Positions 16,717 to 28,617 of a stretch of 53,196 nt of DNA are shown in pieces. This DNA is from Candidatus Bathyarchaeia archaeon. GTDB lineage: Archaea; Thermoproteota; Bathyarchaeia; Bathyarchaeales; Bathycorpusculaceae. Numbering within the stretch: the stretch's first letter is position 1; every line of letters begins with the position of its first letter. The notes under the pieces are model-generated. The model made no database searches. It saw nothing but the letters and a program-made list of their open reading frames with translations, and was not told the origin of the DNA. The position numbers and the translations under genes were made by a program. The stretch spans positions 1-53,196 of the forward strand of contig JBMFOB010000009.1 of NCBI GenBank assembly GCA_049969855.1, written 5' to 3'.

Positions 16717-16849
16717 CTATTTGTAAAATTTAAACAACAAGACTATTTCTCAGTTCCTTGTATTGATTGCCGAATTGAAAAAAGCTTGCCTTTTGCTCCA
16801 TTTTTGCGAAACCGCTACTTAAACAGCGCTTTGAAATTGCCTAAAAATG

Positions 16850-17019
16850 TGGGGCCGGTCGGATTTGAACCGACGACCTTTCCCCGGAAACAGCGCTTGG
16901 CTATTCCTACGGGTTTCTTCTTTGACCGCTCCAGAACTTCTTCATTCCGCATTGCGGTCCGCAAACCCGTTTTGTTGCATTCTGGAGCCCGTCGTCATAC
17001 CTTCCTAGACTACGGCCCC
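16850..17019 (-). tRNA. tRNA-Trp(CCA) with two introns (37/38 at 16915-16981; about 43/44 at 16880-16908)
   Basis: Acceptor GGGGCCG/CGGCCCC, ACGGG-CTCCAG|A-CCCGT, T arm GTCGG-TTCAAAT-CCGAC; removing 67 and 29 nt leaves a 74-nt cloverleaf. Confidence 0.9.
16915..16981 (-). ncRNA. Intron-encoded box C/D-type guide RNA in pre-tRNA-Trp
   Basis: Guides ACGGGTTT and TTCTGGAGC are complementary to the host anticodon arm; D'-like CGGA and C'-like ATGAAGA; outer C/D boxes degenerate. Confidence 0.7.
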
Positions 17020-23380: not shown

Positions 23381-23565
23381 CAAAATGAAATAAGTCATAA
23401 ATAGTCTTTATGCATTTTTTAATACGGTGAAGTGATGCCCCGCCAATTTACTTGAAAAACAAAAAGTTTTCTGGTCAAAAGCCATTGAGGGGCATGCATA
23501 CTTTTATTAAAACTGAAACAACTACATTACGGAAAAAGCACACACATCCACGAAGGGAAAAAGTC

Positions 23566-25077
23566 ATGGTTAAGCTTAGAGAACAGGAATCCAAAATACT
23601 TTTAAGCCTAGAAAAACTTGGCGGAAAGGCTTCTGTGGAAAAATTGACAATTGAAAGTGGGCTTTCCGATGCGGCTGTAATGCGTGCAGCCTTGACATTG
23701 CAAGAGAAGAGACTGTTAAAAATTCATGAAGAGAAACAAATGGTAGTCAAGCTTAATGAGGAGGGAAAAATTCACGCCAAAGAAGGCTTGCCGGAAAGGC
23801 GTTTAATAAACGCTCTAGAAGAATTCGGCGGAAAAGCAACCATTGAAAAAGCTGCTGAAAAAGCCAATTTAGAAAAACATTTCATACCCATAGCCTTGGG
23901 CTGGATTCAGAAAAAGAAGTGGGCAAAACTTGACACTAAAACGAACACGTTGCAGATGCTGGAAAAGCCAAGGGAAGGAGAAGATGAAAGGCTTTTGAGA
24001 CTTCTAAACGAAAAAGGACAAATGGCAACTGAGGATTTAAGCCTAGAACTTCAGAAAACCATTCAAATTTTGAAAAGGAGAAAACTTCTTGAGGCTGAGG
24101 AAAAAGCAAAGAGAATAATAGCTTTAGAAGAGGCTGGATGGAAAGCAATAAAAAAGGGAATCAGCATTGCCGCAGAAATAACCCAAATCACGCCAGAACT
24201 CATAATTAGCGGAAAATGGAGAAAAACAAAGCTCCAAAAATACAACATAGAAGCCCCAGTGGCGAAAACTTGGCCTGGCAAGAAGCATCCTTACCTACAA
24301 TTTTTAGACGAAGTTAAACAGAAGCTTGTCACTTTAGGGTTTAAGGAAATGACTGGTCCAACAGTTGAAACGTCATTCTTCAACTTTGACGCCCTTTATA
24401 CGCCGCAGGACCATCCAGCCCGAGAAATCTTCGGCATATACTTCGTTAAATCTCCAAAGTATGGAAACATAAATATTGGTAGGCATGTTTTAGAAAATGT
24501 TAAGGAAACACATGAAAACGGTTGGAAAACTGGTTCAACTGGATGGAGATATCGCTACTCTTTAAAGGAGGCTAGGCGCCTAATTCTTCGCGGTCACGGA
24601 ACATGCCTAAGCGCTAGAACATTGTTAAGCAGGGATTTGGAGGTTCCGGGGCGGTATTTTTCGATTGTGCGGTGTTATAGACCTGAAGTTGTGGATAAGA
24701 CGCATCTTACAGAATTCAATCAGGTGGAAGGCATAGTTGTGGATGAGGATTTGACGCTTAGAGACCTTTTGGGAGTGCTGGAAAAGTTTGCCATTGAAAT
24801 TGCTGGGGCTGACGAAGTTAAATTTAAACCTGACTATTTCCCCTTCACAGAGCCAAGCGTTGAACTGAGCGCATACAAAAAAGGTTATGGATGGATTGAG
24901 TTTGGGGGTTCTGGCATATTTAGACCAGAAGTTACTTTGCCATTAGGCATTGACGTGCCCGTCATCGCTTGGGGTTTAGGCATTGACCGTCTTTTCATGA
25001 TGAAGGCTGGAATAGATGACATTCGCCAGATTTTCACGTATGATTTGGATTGGATTAGGAGGAAAAAGGTGGTTTAG
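23566..25077 (+). CDS. pheS: Phenylalanine--tRNA ligase alpha subunit
   Basis: NFDALYTPQDHPARE, THLTEFNQVEG, YFPFTEPS, GIFRPEV, WGLGIDRL; ATG at 23566 preferred. Confidence 0.97.
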   Translation: MVKLREQESKILLSLEKLGGKASVEKLTIESGLSDAAVMRAALTLQEKRLLKIHEEKQMVVKLNEEGKIHAKEGLPERRLINALEEFGGKATIEKAAEKANLEKHFIPIALGWIQKKKWAKLDTKTNTLQMLEKPREGEDERLLRLLNEKGQMATEDLSLELQKTIQILKRRKLLEAEEKAKRIIALEEAGWKAIKKGISIAAEITQITPELIISGKWRKTKLQKYNIEAPVAKTWPGKKHPYLQFLDEVKQKLVTLGFKEMTGPTVETSFFNFDALYTPQDHPAREIFGIYFVKSPKYGNINIGRHVLENVKETHENGWKTGSTGWRYRYSLKEARRLILRGHGTCLSARTLLSRDLEVPGRYFSIVRCYRPEVVDKTHLTEFNQVEGIVVDEDLTLRDLLGVLEKFAIEIAGADEVKFKPDYFPFTEPSVELSAYKKGYGWIEFGGSGIFRPEVTLPLGIDVPVIAWGLGIDRLFMMKAGIDDIRQIFTYDLDWIRRKKVV

Positions 25078-25078
25078 G

Positions 25079-26767
25079 ATGCCGACAATAGATGTTGATT
25101 ATGCAGAATTTGAGAGAATGCTCGGCGTAGAACTGCACGGGGACATGGAAAGGCTTAATGAGATTCTAGCTTACGTTAAGGGCGAAGTGAAAATTTTCGA
25201 CGAAAAAGAAGGCGTGATGAGCATTGAAATTAAAGACACAAACCGCCCAGACATATGGAACATTGAAGGCTTAACCCGCGCCCTACGGGGTTTTCTTGGA
25301 ATAGAAGAGGGACTAAAACCCTACGCGGTTGACAAACCAATAGTTGAGGTCCACGTTGACCCAGAATTGAGGAATATTAGACCGTTCATAGGCTGCTCAA
25401 TAGTTAAGGACGTGAAGCTAAATGACACAATAATTCGTGGACTAATGCATTTGCAGGACAAACTTGACCAAACCTATGGAAGGAATAGGCAACGCACTTC
25501 AATTGGATTGTATGACTTCAGCCTCATAACACAACCGCTCTATTATGGGGTTGCCAAACCAACCGAAGTTAGTTTTGTCCCTCTTGGTTTTGGAGAAAAG
25601 CTGAGCTTGGCTGAGATTTTGGAGCGGCATCCAAAGGGCATAGAGTATGGGCATATCGTGAAAAAGCATAAGGTTTATCCCATACTCAAAGATTCAAAAC
25701 AGAAAGTGTTATCCTTCCCACCCATAATAAATTCGAACGATTTGGGAAAAGTTACAGAAGAAACCAAACACGTTCTCGTTGAAGTGACGGGTACAGCGCA
25801 TGAAACCGTGCTTAACACTTTGAAAATCGTTACGTTATCATTGGTTGACCGTGGAGGAAAAGCCTACTCAGCAACAATCCATTATCCACATGAGAACTTG
25901 AAGGTTGTTACGCCTAAGCTTGACACTTGGCTTATGGAATTGGATGTTGAATATGTAAACAAAGTTTTAGGCTTAAAGTTAACAGCCCAAAAAATCGCCC
26001 AACTTCTTGCAAAAGCAAAATTCGGCATCGAAAAACTTGGACGCAACAAGGTAAGCGTGCAAATTCCATGTTACAGAATTGACGTAATGCATCCCATAGA
26101 CTTGGTTGAGGACATAGCAATAGCCTACGGATACAACAAAATTAAGCCCTTGTGGCGCAAACTCCCAACTATTGGAGGCGTTAATCCAAAACAGGGTTTG
26201 TTGAATGTTGCAAGAGAGCTTATGATTGGCATGGGTTTTCAAGAAGTCCTAACCTACACGATGACGAATCCAGAAAACCTATTCACAAAAATGAACCGCA
26301 GAAAAACGCGGACAGTTGAGGTTGCAAATCCAAAGGTTCAAACCTTCACTTGCCTAAGAAGTTGGCTTCTGCCAAGCCTCATGGAGTTTTTAAGCAACAA
26401 CCTCCATGTTGAGTATCCGCAGAAAATCTTCGAGTTGGGCATTGTTACGCTTTTAGACGAGAAGAGGGAGACAAAAACAAGGGATGAAGATAGACTTGCA
26501 GCGGTTATTTCTCACGCAAACGCAAGCTTCAGCGAAATAAAATCAGCTTTAGACGCCTTCTTCCTAAACCTTGGCTTAAAATGGCAGATAAAAGAGACGA
26601 AGCATCCAAGCTTCATAAATGGAAGAGTAGGCACAGCAATAGTAAACGGCAAAAACGTCGGCGTCATAGGCGAAATTCACCCAAAAGTTTTGGAAGCATG
26701 GAAACTTGAAAATCCAACAGCAGCCTTCGAAATAAACATGGAAACAATAATTTGGAGAAAAACCTAG
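25079..26767 (+). CDS. pheT: Phenylalanine--tRNA ligase beta subunit
   Basis: MPTI start, NRPD, QDKLDQTYGRNR, SFPPIINS, RIDVMHPIDLVEDIAIAYGY. Confidence 0.97.
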   Translation: MPTIDVDYAEFERMLGVELHGDMERLNEILAYVKGEVKIFDEKEGVMSIEIKDTNRPDIWNIEGLTRALRGFLGIEEGLKPYAVDKPIVEVHVDPELRNIRPFIGCSIVKDVKLNDTIIRGLMHLQDKLDQTYGRNRQRTSIGLYDFSLITQPLYYGVAKPTEVSFVPLGFGEKLSLAEILERHPKGIEYGHIVKKHKVYPILKDSKQKVLSFPPIINSNDLGKVTEETKHVLVEVTGTAHETVLNTLKIVTLSLVDRGGKAYSATIHYPHENLKVVTPKLDTWLMELDVEYVNKVLGLKLTAQKIAQLLAKAKFGIEKLGRNKVSVQIPCYRIDVMHPIDLVEDIAIAYGYNKIKPLWRKLPTIGGVNPKQGLLNVARELMIGMGFQEVLTYTMTNPENLFTKMNRRKTRTVEVANPKVQTFTCLRSWLLPSLMEFLSNNLHVEYPQKIFELGIVTLLDEKRETKTRDEDRLAAVISHANASFSEIKSALDAFFLNLGLKWQIKETKHPSFINGRVGTAIVNGKNVGVIGEIHPKVLEAWKLENPTAAFEINMETIIWRKT

Positions 26768-26844
26768 AGAGGGTAGGTCCGTATTGGTTAATTTCACAGT
26801 CAAAAATACATGAAATAGTAACATTTAACTTACCGAAAAATAAA

Positions 26845-27070
26845 CCTACAATTTGGCAATGACTTGTAGAGCCTCCTAATCCCACCGATAAATTCATGCA
26901 GACGGACACAACAGAGGCGAAAAGCCATTGAAGACGGGTTTACCCAAGCATGAGACACGGTGGGCGCGGGCGCAAAGCTCCCACACTGGAGAGAGCTTAA
27001 CCAAGAGGAGCGCAAGACTCCACAATGAAGTTAAGTGATAGGTTGGGTGGGAAACAAACGCCCGCGAAAC
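26845..27070 (+). ncRNA. Unassigned structured RNA candidate (two long stem-loop domains, K-turn)
   Basis: GC-rich island with paired segments 26881-87/26958-64, 26894-99/26948-53, 26965-72/27059-66, 26979-84/27047-52, 26995-27001/27030-36; A-rich loops on the + strand. Confidence 0.65.
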
Positions 27071-27118
27071 AACTTTTAAGTCTGGCTTTGCATAAAATGA
27101 AGGAAGGCTTGATAAGAT

Positions 27119-28195
27119 TTGGATATAGAAACAAAAATTGAACTAATCAAGAAACCGCCAACAGAAGAAATCCTAGTGGAAGAGGAATTAAGAGAACTTT
27201 TAGAAACAAACGAGCATCCAGGACATTACATAGGCTTCGAAATTTCAGGCTTGCTGCACCTTGGAAACCTCGTCATCTCGGGATTTAAAATAAACGACTT
27301 CATTAAGGCGGGAATAAGATGCCAAGCTTACATGGCTGATTGGCACAGTTTCATCAATGACAAGTTTGGCGGAGACTGGGACAAGATTCTGAAAGCGGCA
27401 AAATATTATGAGAAAGCCTTCAAATTCTTCTGTTCAGGAGTGAAAGTTGTCTCAGGTTCAGAATTATACAGCAAAAACCTCGAATACTGGAGGAACGTCA
27501 TCAAATTCGCCAAGCACATGACAATAGCCCGAAGCCTAAGATGCATGACAATAATGGGAAGAAGCGAATCAGAAAAACTTGACCTTTCACAATATTTCTA
27601 CCCACCAATGCAAGCAGTAGACATAAAAGAAATAGGCGCTGATATACCGCACGGCGGAATGGACCAAAGAAAAGCCCATGTCTTAGCAAGAGAAGTTTTT
27701 CCAAAAATGGGATGGAAAAAACCAGTGGCAGTCCACCACCACCTCCTAATGGGAATTGCAAAACCAGTAGAGCTAAAATCAAAGGATAAACTGGAACAGG
27801 TTATAGCAAGCAAAATGAGCAAGTCAAAACCTTGGACAGCCATATTCATCCACGACACAGAAGAAGAGATAAGGGCAAAACTGCAAAAAGCATGGTGTCC
27901 AGAAAAACAAACAGAGGCAAACCCAATTTTGGAAATAGTGAAATACATAATATTCCACGAAACAGAAGCCTTCCAAATAGAGAGACCAGCAAAATTCGGC
28001 GGCACAATACAATTCGAAAGCTATGAAATGTTAGAAAAGGCTTACAGAAACGGCGAAGTGCACCCTCAAGACCTAAAAAATGCTGTGGCAAAAGAAATAG
28101 CAAAAATCCTAGAACCAGTCAGAAAATATTTTGAAACAGACAAAGAAGCAAAACAATGTCTAGAAATCGTTAAAAAGGCTGAAGTGACAAGGTAA
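27119..28195 (+). CDS. tyrS: Tyrosine--tRNA ligase
   Basis: YIGFEISGLLHLG, YPPMQAVD, GGMDQRKAH, KMSKS, HPQDLK. Confidence 0.97.
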   Translation: MDIETKIELIKKPPTEEILVEEELRELLETNEHPGHYIGFEISGLLHLGNLVISGFKINDFIKAGIRCQAYMADWHSFINDKFGGDWDKILKAAKYYEKAFKFFCSGVKVVSGSELYSKNLEYWRNVIKFAKHMTIARSLRCMTIMGRSESEKLDLSQYFYPPMQAVDIKEIGADIPHGGMDQRKAHVLAREVFPKMGWKKPVAVHHHLLMGIAKPVELKSKDKLEQVIASKMSKSKPWTAIFIHDTEEEIRAKLQKAWCPEKQTEANPILEIVKYIIFHETEAFQIERPAKFGGTIQFESYEMLEKAYRNGEVHPQDLKNAVAKEIAKILEPVRKYFETDKEAKQCLEIVKKAEVTR

Positions 28196-28200
28196 AAATT

Positions 28201-28617
28201 TTGTCCACGCACCTAAAAGAGAAAGAAGAAAAAATTCTGCAAATTCTGGAACAATTAGCCGAAGAAACCCGAAAGGGAACACCAATAATCGTAGAAGGCA
28301 AAAAAGACATAGAAACACTAAAAACGCTTAATATTGAAGGCAAGATAATATCTGCAAAAACTGGCGGCAAAACCCTCCTAGACACGATTTCGGAACTGGA
28401 AAAAACCCATTCCCAAAAAGTTGTTTTATTATTGGATTTTGACAGAAGGGGAAAAGAATTAACAAAAAACTTGGAGAAACATTTTGAAATAATGGGAATA
28501 GAGGTTAACCTGAAATTTTGGCGTGAACTTTTAGGGCTTTTGGGCAAAGAGTTGAAGGATGTTGAGGGTTTAGCCACATACATAGAAACCTTAAAGAAGA
28601 AGATTTGTAATTCATAA
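28201..28617 (+). CDS. Small Toprim-domain protein
   Basis: IIVEGKKD and LLDFDRRG Toprim motifs. Confidence 0.92.
   Translation: MSTHLKEKEEKILQILEQLAEETRKGTPIIVEGKKDIETLKTLNIEGKIISAKTGGKTLLDTISELEKTHSQKVVLLLDFDRRGKELTKNLEKHFEIMGIEVNLKFWRELLGLLGKELKDVEGLATYIETLKKKICNS

Follow-up and report, generated by a model that had tools for sequence, protein, structure and literature searches.

A structured RNA of about 212 nt lies between the genes pheT and tyrS in the stretch of DNA analysed here (the window: 53,196 nt, positions 1 to 53,196 of the forward strand of contig JBMFOB010000009.1, from the Candidatus Bathyarchaeia archaeon assembly GCA_049969855.1). It occupies positions 26855-27066 on the + strand, is conserved and covarying, and is in our judgement likely to be an independently transcribed double-hairpin box H/ACA guide small RNA (sRNA) for pseudouridines in 23S rRNA. 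We read it as a guide because of four kinds of evidence taken together: the anatomy of its two hairpins, their agreement with published geometry rules, the complementarity of their internal loops to rRNA, and the presence of the H/ACA protein genes in the genome. A preliminary description of this DNA, made from the letters alone, had proposed a structured RNA of about 200 nt with kink-turns (K-turns) at this place, and had left its role between an atypical multi-hairpin H/ACA guide and a cis-regulatory, possibly T-box-like, leader of tyrS. The same four lines favour the first of these.

The segment stands apart from its surroundings in composition, with a G+C fraction of 0.55-0.57 versus 0.32-0.45 in the flanks. 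Its + strand folds better than shuffled sequence (z = -4.2, with 0/200 shuffles equal); the - strand of the same segment gives z = -3.2. A DNA search turned up homologues at 69-96% identity in 44 of 61 related genomes, usually with one copy in each. We scored a hand-drawn structure on a clean alignment of 27 relatives: pairing holds in 96.1% of cells, against 38-46% when the partners are slid by 1-3 columns, and 15 pairs show compensatory change where shuffles average 6.8 and none of 500 reaches 15. Among 64 model-aligned sequences, an alignment that was fitted to the model and so leans towards it, 44 of the 49 pairs vary on both sides. No Rfam 15 family matches the element at the gathering score, nor at E <= 10, and 15 loci from other classes gave zero Rfam matches. 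The RNA had been judged not to resemble tRNA, 5S rRNA, RNase P RNA or signal recognition particle (SRP) RNA. Rfam 15 places RNase P RNA, 5S rRNA and four tRNAs in the window away from the element, and SRP RNA is encoded elsewhere in the genome.

Much of the preliminary fold survives this comparison. Most of its stems are present where it placed them, and six are backed by compensatory changes (CCCACCG/CGGTGGG, TCATGC/GCATGA, CGCGGGCG/CGCCCGCG, TCCCAC/GTGGGA, CTTAAC/GTTAAG and GGAG/CTCC); its two K-turn-like motifs are real and conserved, with the form GA...NNU-GA; and the covariance model across relatives of the class that it called for does reveal covariation, the Rfam search returning no known family. 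Two of its hairpins do not stand. In the proposed GGGT-TT-ACCC hairpin the GGG instead pairs with the upstream CNC of GACGGACNC, with compensatory changes in four loci (L007, L025, L028 and L029), and the covariation leaves ACCCA as single-stranded guide sequence. The CTACAA/TTGTAG hairpin is not conserved, and the conserved element in its place is a 5' K-loop of the form GGC-RAUGA-N3-30-GA-GCC. From 5' to 3' the revised order is K-loop, clamp helix P1, hairpin 1, clamp helix P1' (which follows P1 with no spacer) and hairpin 2. Features are located in Table 1; positions within the RNA, where used, are window coordinates minus 26851.

Table 1. Positions in the window of the RNA, its parts and the adjoining genes; promoter assignments are predictions.
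Feature	Position	Strand	Basis or remarks
pheT	25016-26767	+	Pfam-confirmed
Predicted BRE/TATA-type promoter of the RNA gene (ATAGTAAC-ATTTAACTT)	26815-26831	+	conserved block in homologues
5' K-loop, a mini C/D-like K-turn hairpin (GGC-AAUGA-CUUGUA-GA-GCC)	26855-26873	+	pattern match
Clamp P1	26881-26887 with 26958-26964	+	7 bp; 100% of cells paired
Hairpin 1 with ACA	26894-26957	+	covariation
Hairpin 1 lower stem	26894-26899 with 26948-26953	+	6 bp
Hairpin 1 pocket, 5' side (AGACGGAC)	26900-26907	+	conservation
Hairpin 1 upper stem with K-turn	26908-26938	+	GA 26914-26915; AUU-GA 26927-26931
Hairpin 1 pocket, 3' side (UUUACCCAA)	26939-26947	+	conservation
ACA box of hairpin 1	26955-26957	+	1 nt past the lower stem, within the P1-closed loop
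Clamp P1'	26965-26972 with 27059-27066	+	8 bp; adjoins P1
Hairpin 2 with ACA	26979-27056	+	covariation
Hairpin 2 lower stem	26979-26985 with 27046-27052	+	7 bp; 6/7 vary on both sides (64 sequences)
Hairpin 2 pocket, 5' side (CUGGAGAGAG)	26986-26995	+	conservation
Hairpin 2 upper stem (CUUAAC/GUUAAG) with K-turn	26996-27035	+	A27004, G27005; AAU-GA 27024-27028
Hairpin 2 pocket, 3' side (UGAUAGGUUG)	27036-27045	+	G-N-U-A-G-G-U conserved
ACA box of hairpin 2	27054-27056	+	2 nt past the lower stem, within the P1'-closed loop
Putative BRE/TATA-like element of tyrS (AAACAAC-TTTTAAG)	27067-27080	+	conservation pattern
tyrS	27119-28195	+	TTG start; Pfam-confirmed

Both hairpins consist of a lower stem, an internal loop, an upper stem bearing a K-turn with tandem G.A pairs and a 3-nt bulge ending in U, a variable apex, and an ACA. 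The strands of the two internal loops, which we call pockets, are the most conserved parts of the whole RNA (GACGG and ACCCA in hairpin 1, GAGAGAG and G-N-UAGGU in hairpin 2). In hairpin 1, four pairs of the lower stem show compensatory change in the 27 sequences and all six vary on both sides in the 64, and GACGG and the ACA are each invariant in 27/27; ACCCA is likewise invariant. The apparent pairs that the pocket edge could form with 26939-26941 (G.U, G.U and A-U) almost never covary (GU 52, GU 53 and AU 47 of about 58), as is expected if these are guide bases. The pair C56-G87 (26907/26938) does covary (CG 52, UA 4, AU 1) and is real in the free RNA. The K-turn positions A64, U78, G79 and A80 are invariant beneath an apical hairpin (GGC-GAAAA-GCC here) that varies from 11 to about 45 nt. 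In hairpin 2, GAGAGAG is invariant in 27/27 and retained in other classes, five of the six upper-stem pairs vary on both sides among the 64 sequences, A153, G154, C172, U175, G176 and A177 do not vary, the apex forms a GGAGC-loop-GCUCC hairpin, and the ACA is at least 90% conserved in the 27 sequences and present in other classes.

The geometry can be compared with published rules, taking the orientation of the K-turns to be the same as in solved H/ACA ribonucleoproteins. The distance from ACA to target uridine is given as 14-16 nt (PMC2651775; PMC7075261), with activity reported at a spacing of up to 17 nt, and the distal G:A pair should stand 9-10 layers higher than the upper-stem base (PMC7075261). 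Hairpin 1 has an ACA-to-target spacing of 14 nt, and its distal G:A lies 9 layers above the upper-stem base when C56-G87 is counted and 8 when it is not; in the modelled bound state the count becomes 8, because C56 is released as a guide base. For hairpin 2 the corresponding count, taken from the pocket upwards, is 9-10. The ACA-to-target spacing of this hairpin is 14 nt in other classes and 17 nt along the 3' strand here (27037 to the ACA); it would come down to 14 nt here only if UUG 27043-27045 were to bulge and C26986/U26987 were to pair with G27041/G27042.

Genes for Cbf5 (350 bits), Nop10 (84 bits), Gar1 (35.5 bits) and for two proteins of the L7Ae family are present in the genome, each scoring over its curated cut-off. 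The cbf5 gene (G000 contig C25:11493-12468, - strand) matches TIGR00425 in two adjacent open pieces, profile positions 5-70 and 70-322, that are 16 nt apart, which may reflect a frameshift or an intron.

Targets were read on the rRNAs of a relative, G012, which belongs to the same family and whose copy of the RNA is 88% identical. All 809 uridines of its large- and small-subunit rRNAs (LSU and SSU) were scored in a fixed register, which for hairpin 1 comprised 7 + 7 positions around two unpaired target bases. The best score for hairpin 1, 11 of 14, falls at LSU 2715, the third U of cugggUU-UA-gaccguc, and the next is 8.5. ACCCA complements the UGGGU on the 5' side of the target U, and the 5' side of the pocket complements GACCGUC on its 3' side at 6 of 7 positions. 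An unclamped hairpin 1 guide from another class, which has A for U beside the target, reaches 12 of 14 at the same site, with 9 as the next score. The site corresponds to the third U of GGGUUUAG, a segment of the peptidyl-transferase ring; we take this uridine to be E. coli U2586, and it is the most likely target of hairpin 1.

With the canonical gap of two bases, no G012 uridine stands out for hairpin 2. When five target bases are left unpaired, the top score is 10.5 at LSU 2041 (gaguaac-UCUGA-cucucuc), with 9.0 next, and that position is the first U of the helix 69 loop UCUG. GAGAGAG complements CUCUCUC, the 3' strand of helix 69, and G(A/U)UA complements the UAAC directly 5' of the loop U; position 27038 is A here, giving an A.A mismatch, and U in 8 of the 27 relatives and in other classes. 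The string TCTCTC is unique in the G012 23S and absent from the 16S of that genome. In G307, from another class, the genome's own guide scored on its own LSU gives the same top site at gap 5. The most likely target of hairpin 2 is this helix 69 loop U, presumably E. coli U1915 and perhaps also U1917, with an atypical pairing that would leave about five target bases unpaired.

Two observations concern the same pocket and site. In L033 (G029:C3) the helix 69 sequence is replaced by unrelated sequence just 5' of AAGGTAGCC in the 23S, and the LSU match there extends over just 2236 nt (1790 bits); either an rRNA intron or a break in the assembly may lie behind this, at the very site that hairpin 2 is predicted to target. 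The pockets of hairpin 2 are altered in the families of G280, G308, G287 and G266, in whose genomes no LSU match was found with a query taken from another part of the LSU, a query that did locate the G307 LSU. In L188 and L191 the altered pocket reads GAAGAGU.

Several points weigh against the guide reading and its targets. Neither 16S nor 23S rRNA is assembled in the genome that the window comes from, which is why a relative was used. The pocket registers and the five-base gap of hairpin 2 were chosen post hoc, with both the matches and a published guide, sR-h45, in view. Scans of rRNA with free registers or with the loops as first drawn (AGAC/ACCCAA, GAGAGA/GAUAGGUUAC, and outer loops of the CAAAGC/AACAAA type) gave nothing above chance; the CAAAGC/AACAAA loop, which the preliminary description had offered as a guide pocket, varies in length and sequence and has no rRNA match. 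Shuffled pocket strands match the observed score in 15 of 300 trials for hairpin 1 and 35 of 300 for hairpin 2, and with the G307 guide for hairpin 2 another LSU site scores an equal 10.5 at gaps 2 and 4. The predicted duplexes are imperfect: in hairpin 1 a U.U adjoins the target and the 5'-side duplex contains an A.A, and in hairpin 2 the 3'-side pairing is 4 bp long, with an A.A mismatch in its middle here and in 19 of the 27 relatives. Each ACA is shut into an internal loop by a clamp helix, where the canonical form has a 3' tail, and we know of no demonstration that Cbf5 accepts a helix-enclosed ACA. The pairing on the 3' side is described as the one that matters more (PMC7075261), which tells against hairpin 2 in particular. 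Because the controls are modest and the registers post hoc, the target argument rests mainly on agreement with published biology.

That agreement is with sR-h45 of Haloferax volcanii, described as a double stem-loop H/ACA RNA of about 200 nt (PMC7075261). Its 5' stem-loop is reported to guide formation of pseudouridine (Psi) 2605, the last of the three Us that lie between helices 90 and 93, preceded by m3U2603 and an unmodified U2604, and its 3' stem-loop that of Psi1940 and Psi1942 in helix 69, with UNUN left unpaired (PMC7075261). As far as that description goes, the two RNAs share a length of about 200 nt, two K-turn-bearing H/ACA hairpins in one molecule, the same two 23S sites assigned to the same hairpins in the same 5'-to-3' order, an ANA after the first hairpin and an ACA after the second, and a 3' hairpin that leaves more than two target bases unpaired. 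In sR-h45 a linker of 56 nt and an H box and ACA tail that are single-stranded take the place of the abutting clamps of the bathyarchaeal RNA. The latter also has the extra 5' K-loop, and the number of unpaired target bases differs (four, UNUN, in sR-h45 versus about five). Compared by description in this way, the bathyarchaeal RNA appears to be the functional counterpart of sR-h45 and is probably its orthologue.

Other published guides offer partial likenesses. The Pab and Pf H/ACA sRNAs of Pyrococcus, which range from single- to triple-hairpin forms, are described with a similar lower stem, pocket and helix of 5-6 bp leading to the K-turn, and with an ACA 14 nt from the target (PMC2377435, PMC2651775); their L7Ae, Cbf5, Nop10 and Gar1 partners are encoded here also. 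In those accounts, as far as they describe the RNAs, clamps enclosing the ACA are a feature of the bathyarchaeal RNA only. Archaeal H/ACA guides are said to be usually poorly conserved between orders (PMC2377435), whereas the bathyarchaeal RNA is conserved across classes of its phylum. The Sulfolobales RNAs Sso1, Sto1 and Sac1, in which an H/ACA motif is fused to a C/D-box motif, are reported to guide Psi35 of pre-tRNA-Tyr (PMC2651775). They resemble our RNA in being composite, a single transcript carrying both an H/ACA hairpin and a K-turn motif of C/D type, and there is a thematic tie to tyrosine decoding in that the RNA gene adjoins tyrS; the difference, on the published description, is that the bathyarchaeal K-turn motif is 5', short and without a guide region.

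With this precedent in mind, Psi35 of tRNA-Tyr was considered as a target and set aside, there being no obvious complementarity, judged by eye only, between the pockets and a candidate tRNA-Tyr. ARAGORN found no tRNA-Tyr in the genome. The candidate, picked out by eye on the - strand of G000 contig C18 (17919-18083) and so not part of the window, carries a C1-G72 pair, the anticodon-loop sequence CTGTAGA, a CCA end and at least two long insertions, and is miscalled by ARAGORN as Leu(taa) with an 83-nt intron. Within the window, a tRNA gene at 16849-17019 on the - strand (Pro(agg) by ARAGORN; 41.7 bits with the Rfam tRNA model) carries an 81-nt insertion at the non-canonical position 29/30, and several further tRNAs of the genome have similarly long, oddly placed introns.

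Under the guide reading, L7Ae would bind the K-turn of each hairpin, and Cbf5-Nop10-Gar1 would bind the lower stem and ACA. The internal loop would then open and pair with 23S rRNA on either side of a uridine, and Cbf5 would turn the flanked uridine into pseudouridine. The structure with its covariation and conservation, the promoter-like element, the complementarity and the protein genes are observed; protein binding, pseudouridine formation and the transcript ends are predicted. If the prediction is right, it supplies an annotated guide RNA for helix 69 and the peptidyl-transferase ring, which are among the ribosomal regions with the most conserved pseudouridines, in Bathyarchaeia and related Thermoproteota, all of them known only from metagenomes. 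It also suggests that the double guide is ancient in archaea, and offers a seed from which to model the covariation of a family that Rfam 15 misses.

The RNA is unusual in three respects: its ACAs are enclosed by covarying clamps, it has a third K-turn site at the 5' end, and its gene position is fixed across classes. Two pairs of P1 show compensatory change among the 27 sequences and all seven vary on both sides among the 64; for P1' the figures are three pairs and eight of eight, and in other classes its sequence is entirely different (for example GACUGCUG/CAGCAGUC). P1' clamps also occur outside the class, in L178, L179 and L272. In other classes both hairpins also occur without clamps, each followed by its ACA and then by unrelated sequence (L188, L191, L181, L185, L190 and L189); because the same hairpins stand unclamped there, we regard the clamps as additions to ordinary H/ACA units. 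A regular expression for the K-loop, [R/N]GC-RAUGA-N(2-34)-GA-GC[N], matches 39 of 55 homologues, and in those without it the promoter directly precedes P1. The K-loop would form a third site for L7Ae, and together with the clamps may stabilise the RNA and protect its ends. To our knowledge a clamped ACA is without precedent, our literature searches having been limited and none aimed directly at such a form. The RNA is in any case a natural test of whether Cbf5 can use a helix-enclosed ACA box.

A bolder extension, which we put forward as doubtful, is that the clamped form is a distinct H/ACA subclass in which the ACAs are locked, the units stacked and a third L7Ae site added, and that transcription or termination of the RNA is coupled to expression of the synthetase cluster. 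The 3' end of the RNA overlaps the putative tyrS promoter, and its position between pheT and tyrS is fixed across Thermoproteota classes. Such a subclass, if it exists, would imply a different engagement of the Cbf5 PUA domain or a gated assembly step.

An RNA with the H/ACA fold, bound by L7Ae and Cbf5, need not be a guide; it could be a chaperone of rRNA folding, a processing factor or a store of L7Ae, and would then resemble eukaryotic snR30/U17. The mismatches beside the target and the 4-bp 3' duplex of hairpin 2 fit that idea, as does the non-canonical clamped ACA, and the hairpin 2 pocket could, from its sequence, zip onto itself through tandem G.A and A-U pairs. There is also an archaeal precedent in sR666, a hairpin RNA from Sulfolobus islandicus: L7Ae and Cbf5-Nop10 are described as binding it, and it is said to have no guide regions (PMC11077068). 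Against it, the best rRNA matches are exactly the two sR-h45 sites in the same order, the spacing rules are satisfied, and the strands of the pockets, rather than other parts of the RNA, are the most conserved. We think a non-guide role improbable.

The second role proposed in the preliminary description, a cis-acting leader or riboswitch-like element (T-box-like or L7Ae-dependent) controlling transcription or translation of tyrS, has the map in its favour. In 26 of 30 loci the RNA sits immediately 5' of a co-oriented tyrS, the order pheT-RNA-tyrS is kept in other classes too (seven loci: L178, L179, L181, L182, L186, L187 and L190), and the 3' end of the RNA adjoins a promoter-like element of tyrS. 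K-turns, moreover, occur in some riboswitch leaders. The promoters speak otherwise. A conserved block, (A/C)AG(T/C)AAYNTTTAAYT, stands about 22-28 nt upstream of the first structural element in the 30-locus alignment (about 25 nt in the window), and upstream of 55 matches; it resembles what we take to be the archaeal BRE/TATA (B recognition element/TATA box) consensus, and on that basis we call it the promoter of an independent RNA gene. A second block of the same form, AAACAAC-TTTTAAG, with GCATA about 17 nt downstream, comes after the last helix and is conserved only where the next gene follows directly. It is missing where a gene or about 0.8 kb intervenes (as in L010, L018, L021, L024, L026 and L029), the RNA itself staying conserved; because its form is the same as that of the upstream block, we read it as the tyrS promoter.

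This also disposes of the terminal AA-ACA and T-run that had been drawn as part of the RNA: they appear to belong to the BRE/TATA element of the next gene, and the conserved ACAs are the two internal ones. The RNA likely ends near 27066, with the 3' strand of P1', and the T-run of the tyrS element may double as its terminator. The RNA persists where 0.3-0.9 kb separates it from tyrS (L002, L018, L020, L024, L026, L027 and L029) and in the four of 30 loci that have no tyrS within 1.5 kb (L010, L012, L019 and L021). No conserved tyrosine codon, anticodon, specifier-like or NCCA-complementary element is visible in the alignments, and every conserved loop is accounted for by H/ACA features and rRNA complementarity. 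A leader function is very unlikely on these grounds, and the locus provides no evidence for T-box-like control of an archaeal aminoacyl-tRNA synthetase.

Equally hard to credit is a 16S target for hairpin 1, a uridine in upper helix 44 (UUGGGUGAG-GCGUG-GUC) in place of the 23S site: it is the top free-register match (score 14.5, with 0 of 40 shuffled rRNAs as high), and across 15 genomes guide positions 96 and 97 pair with variable 16S bases in 14/15 and 13/15, but a base other than U occupies the first unpaired target position, some of the long match is peculiar to G012, the guide bases that covary are lower-stem bases too, the region varies where the guide is invariant across classes, and we dropped it because the segment is altered without a matching guide change in G046 (now UAGAUGAG, the guide still ACCCA) and in G018 and G047 (whose 16S have UGGAUGAG).

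The double-hairpin guide RNA, as we interpret it, is widespread in its class, Bathyarchaeia, to which genomes were assigned by record title. A pattern derived from the alignment matched 110 stretches in the species collection; among the 80 of these with titles listed, all were Bathyarchaeota or Bathyarchaeia bar one labelled Thermoproteota. The covariance model R1, searched across the window's phylum, has matches in 115 of a set of 151 class members, covering 70 of 80 genera, and in 41 of 151 of a phylum-wide sample, 20 of them in families of other classes; six families outside the class are represented among the phylum-wide matches, that of G318 (f38) being one. A degenerate DNA pattern for hairpin 2, applied to all genomes, also gave chance matches in bacteria. 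Of the 120 stretches that it returned, eight were checked with the model, and L234, L223 and L272, and no others of those eight, were confirmed; L272 comes from a metagenome-assembled genome labelled Desulfurococcales.

In the window the RNA is part of a conserved cluster, pheS - pheT - H/ACA RNA - tyrS - a small Toprim-domain protein (23452-28617), and the Toprim open reading frame is found 3' of tyrS in most relatives.

A few loci depart from the standard arrangement. (i) L183 (G318:C36:824-992, - strand), in a family outside the class, has a clamped hairpin 1 with the same pocket, followed by a different H/ACA hairpin whose pocket is UCAGAA / CGAGUCAGA. Because the second hairpin differs there, the partner hairpin, and presumably its target, would be exchangeable. 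(ii) In L325 (G025:C6:129000-135000) and in L326 (G021:C2:146000-152400) two copies of the RNA lie 4-5 kb apart. One of each pair is a diverged full-length copy, and in the other the 5' half of hairpin 1 has been swapped for unrelated A-rich sequence; the 5' half is likewise replaced in L016 (G013). (iii) G025 has in addition a solitary hairpin 1, at L325:552-624.

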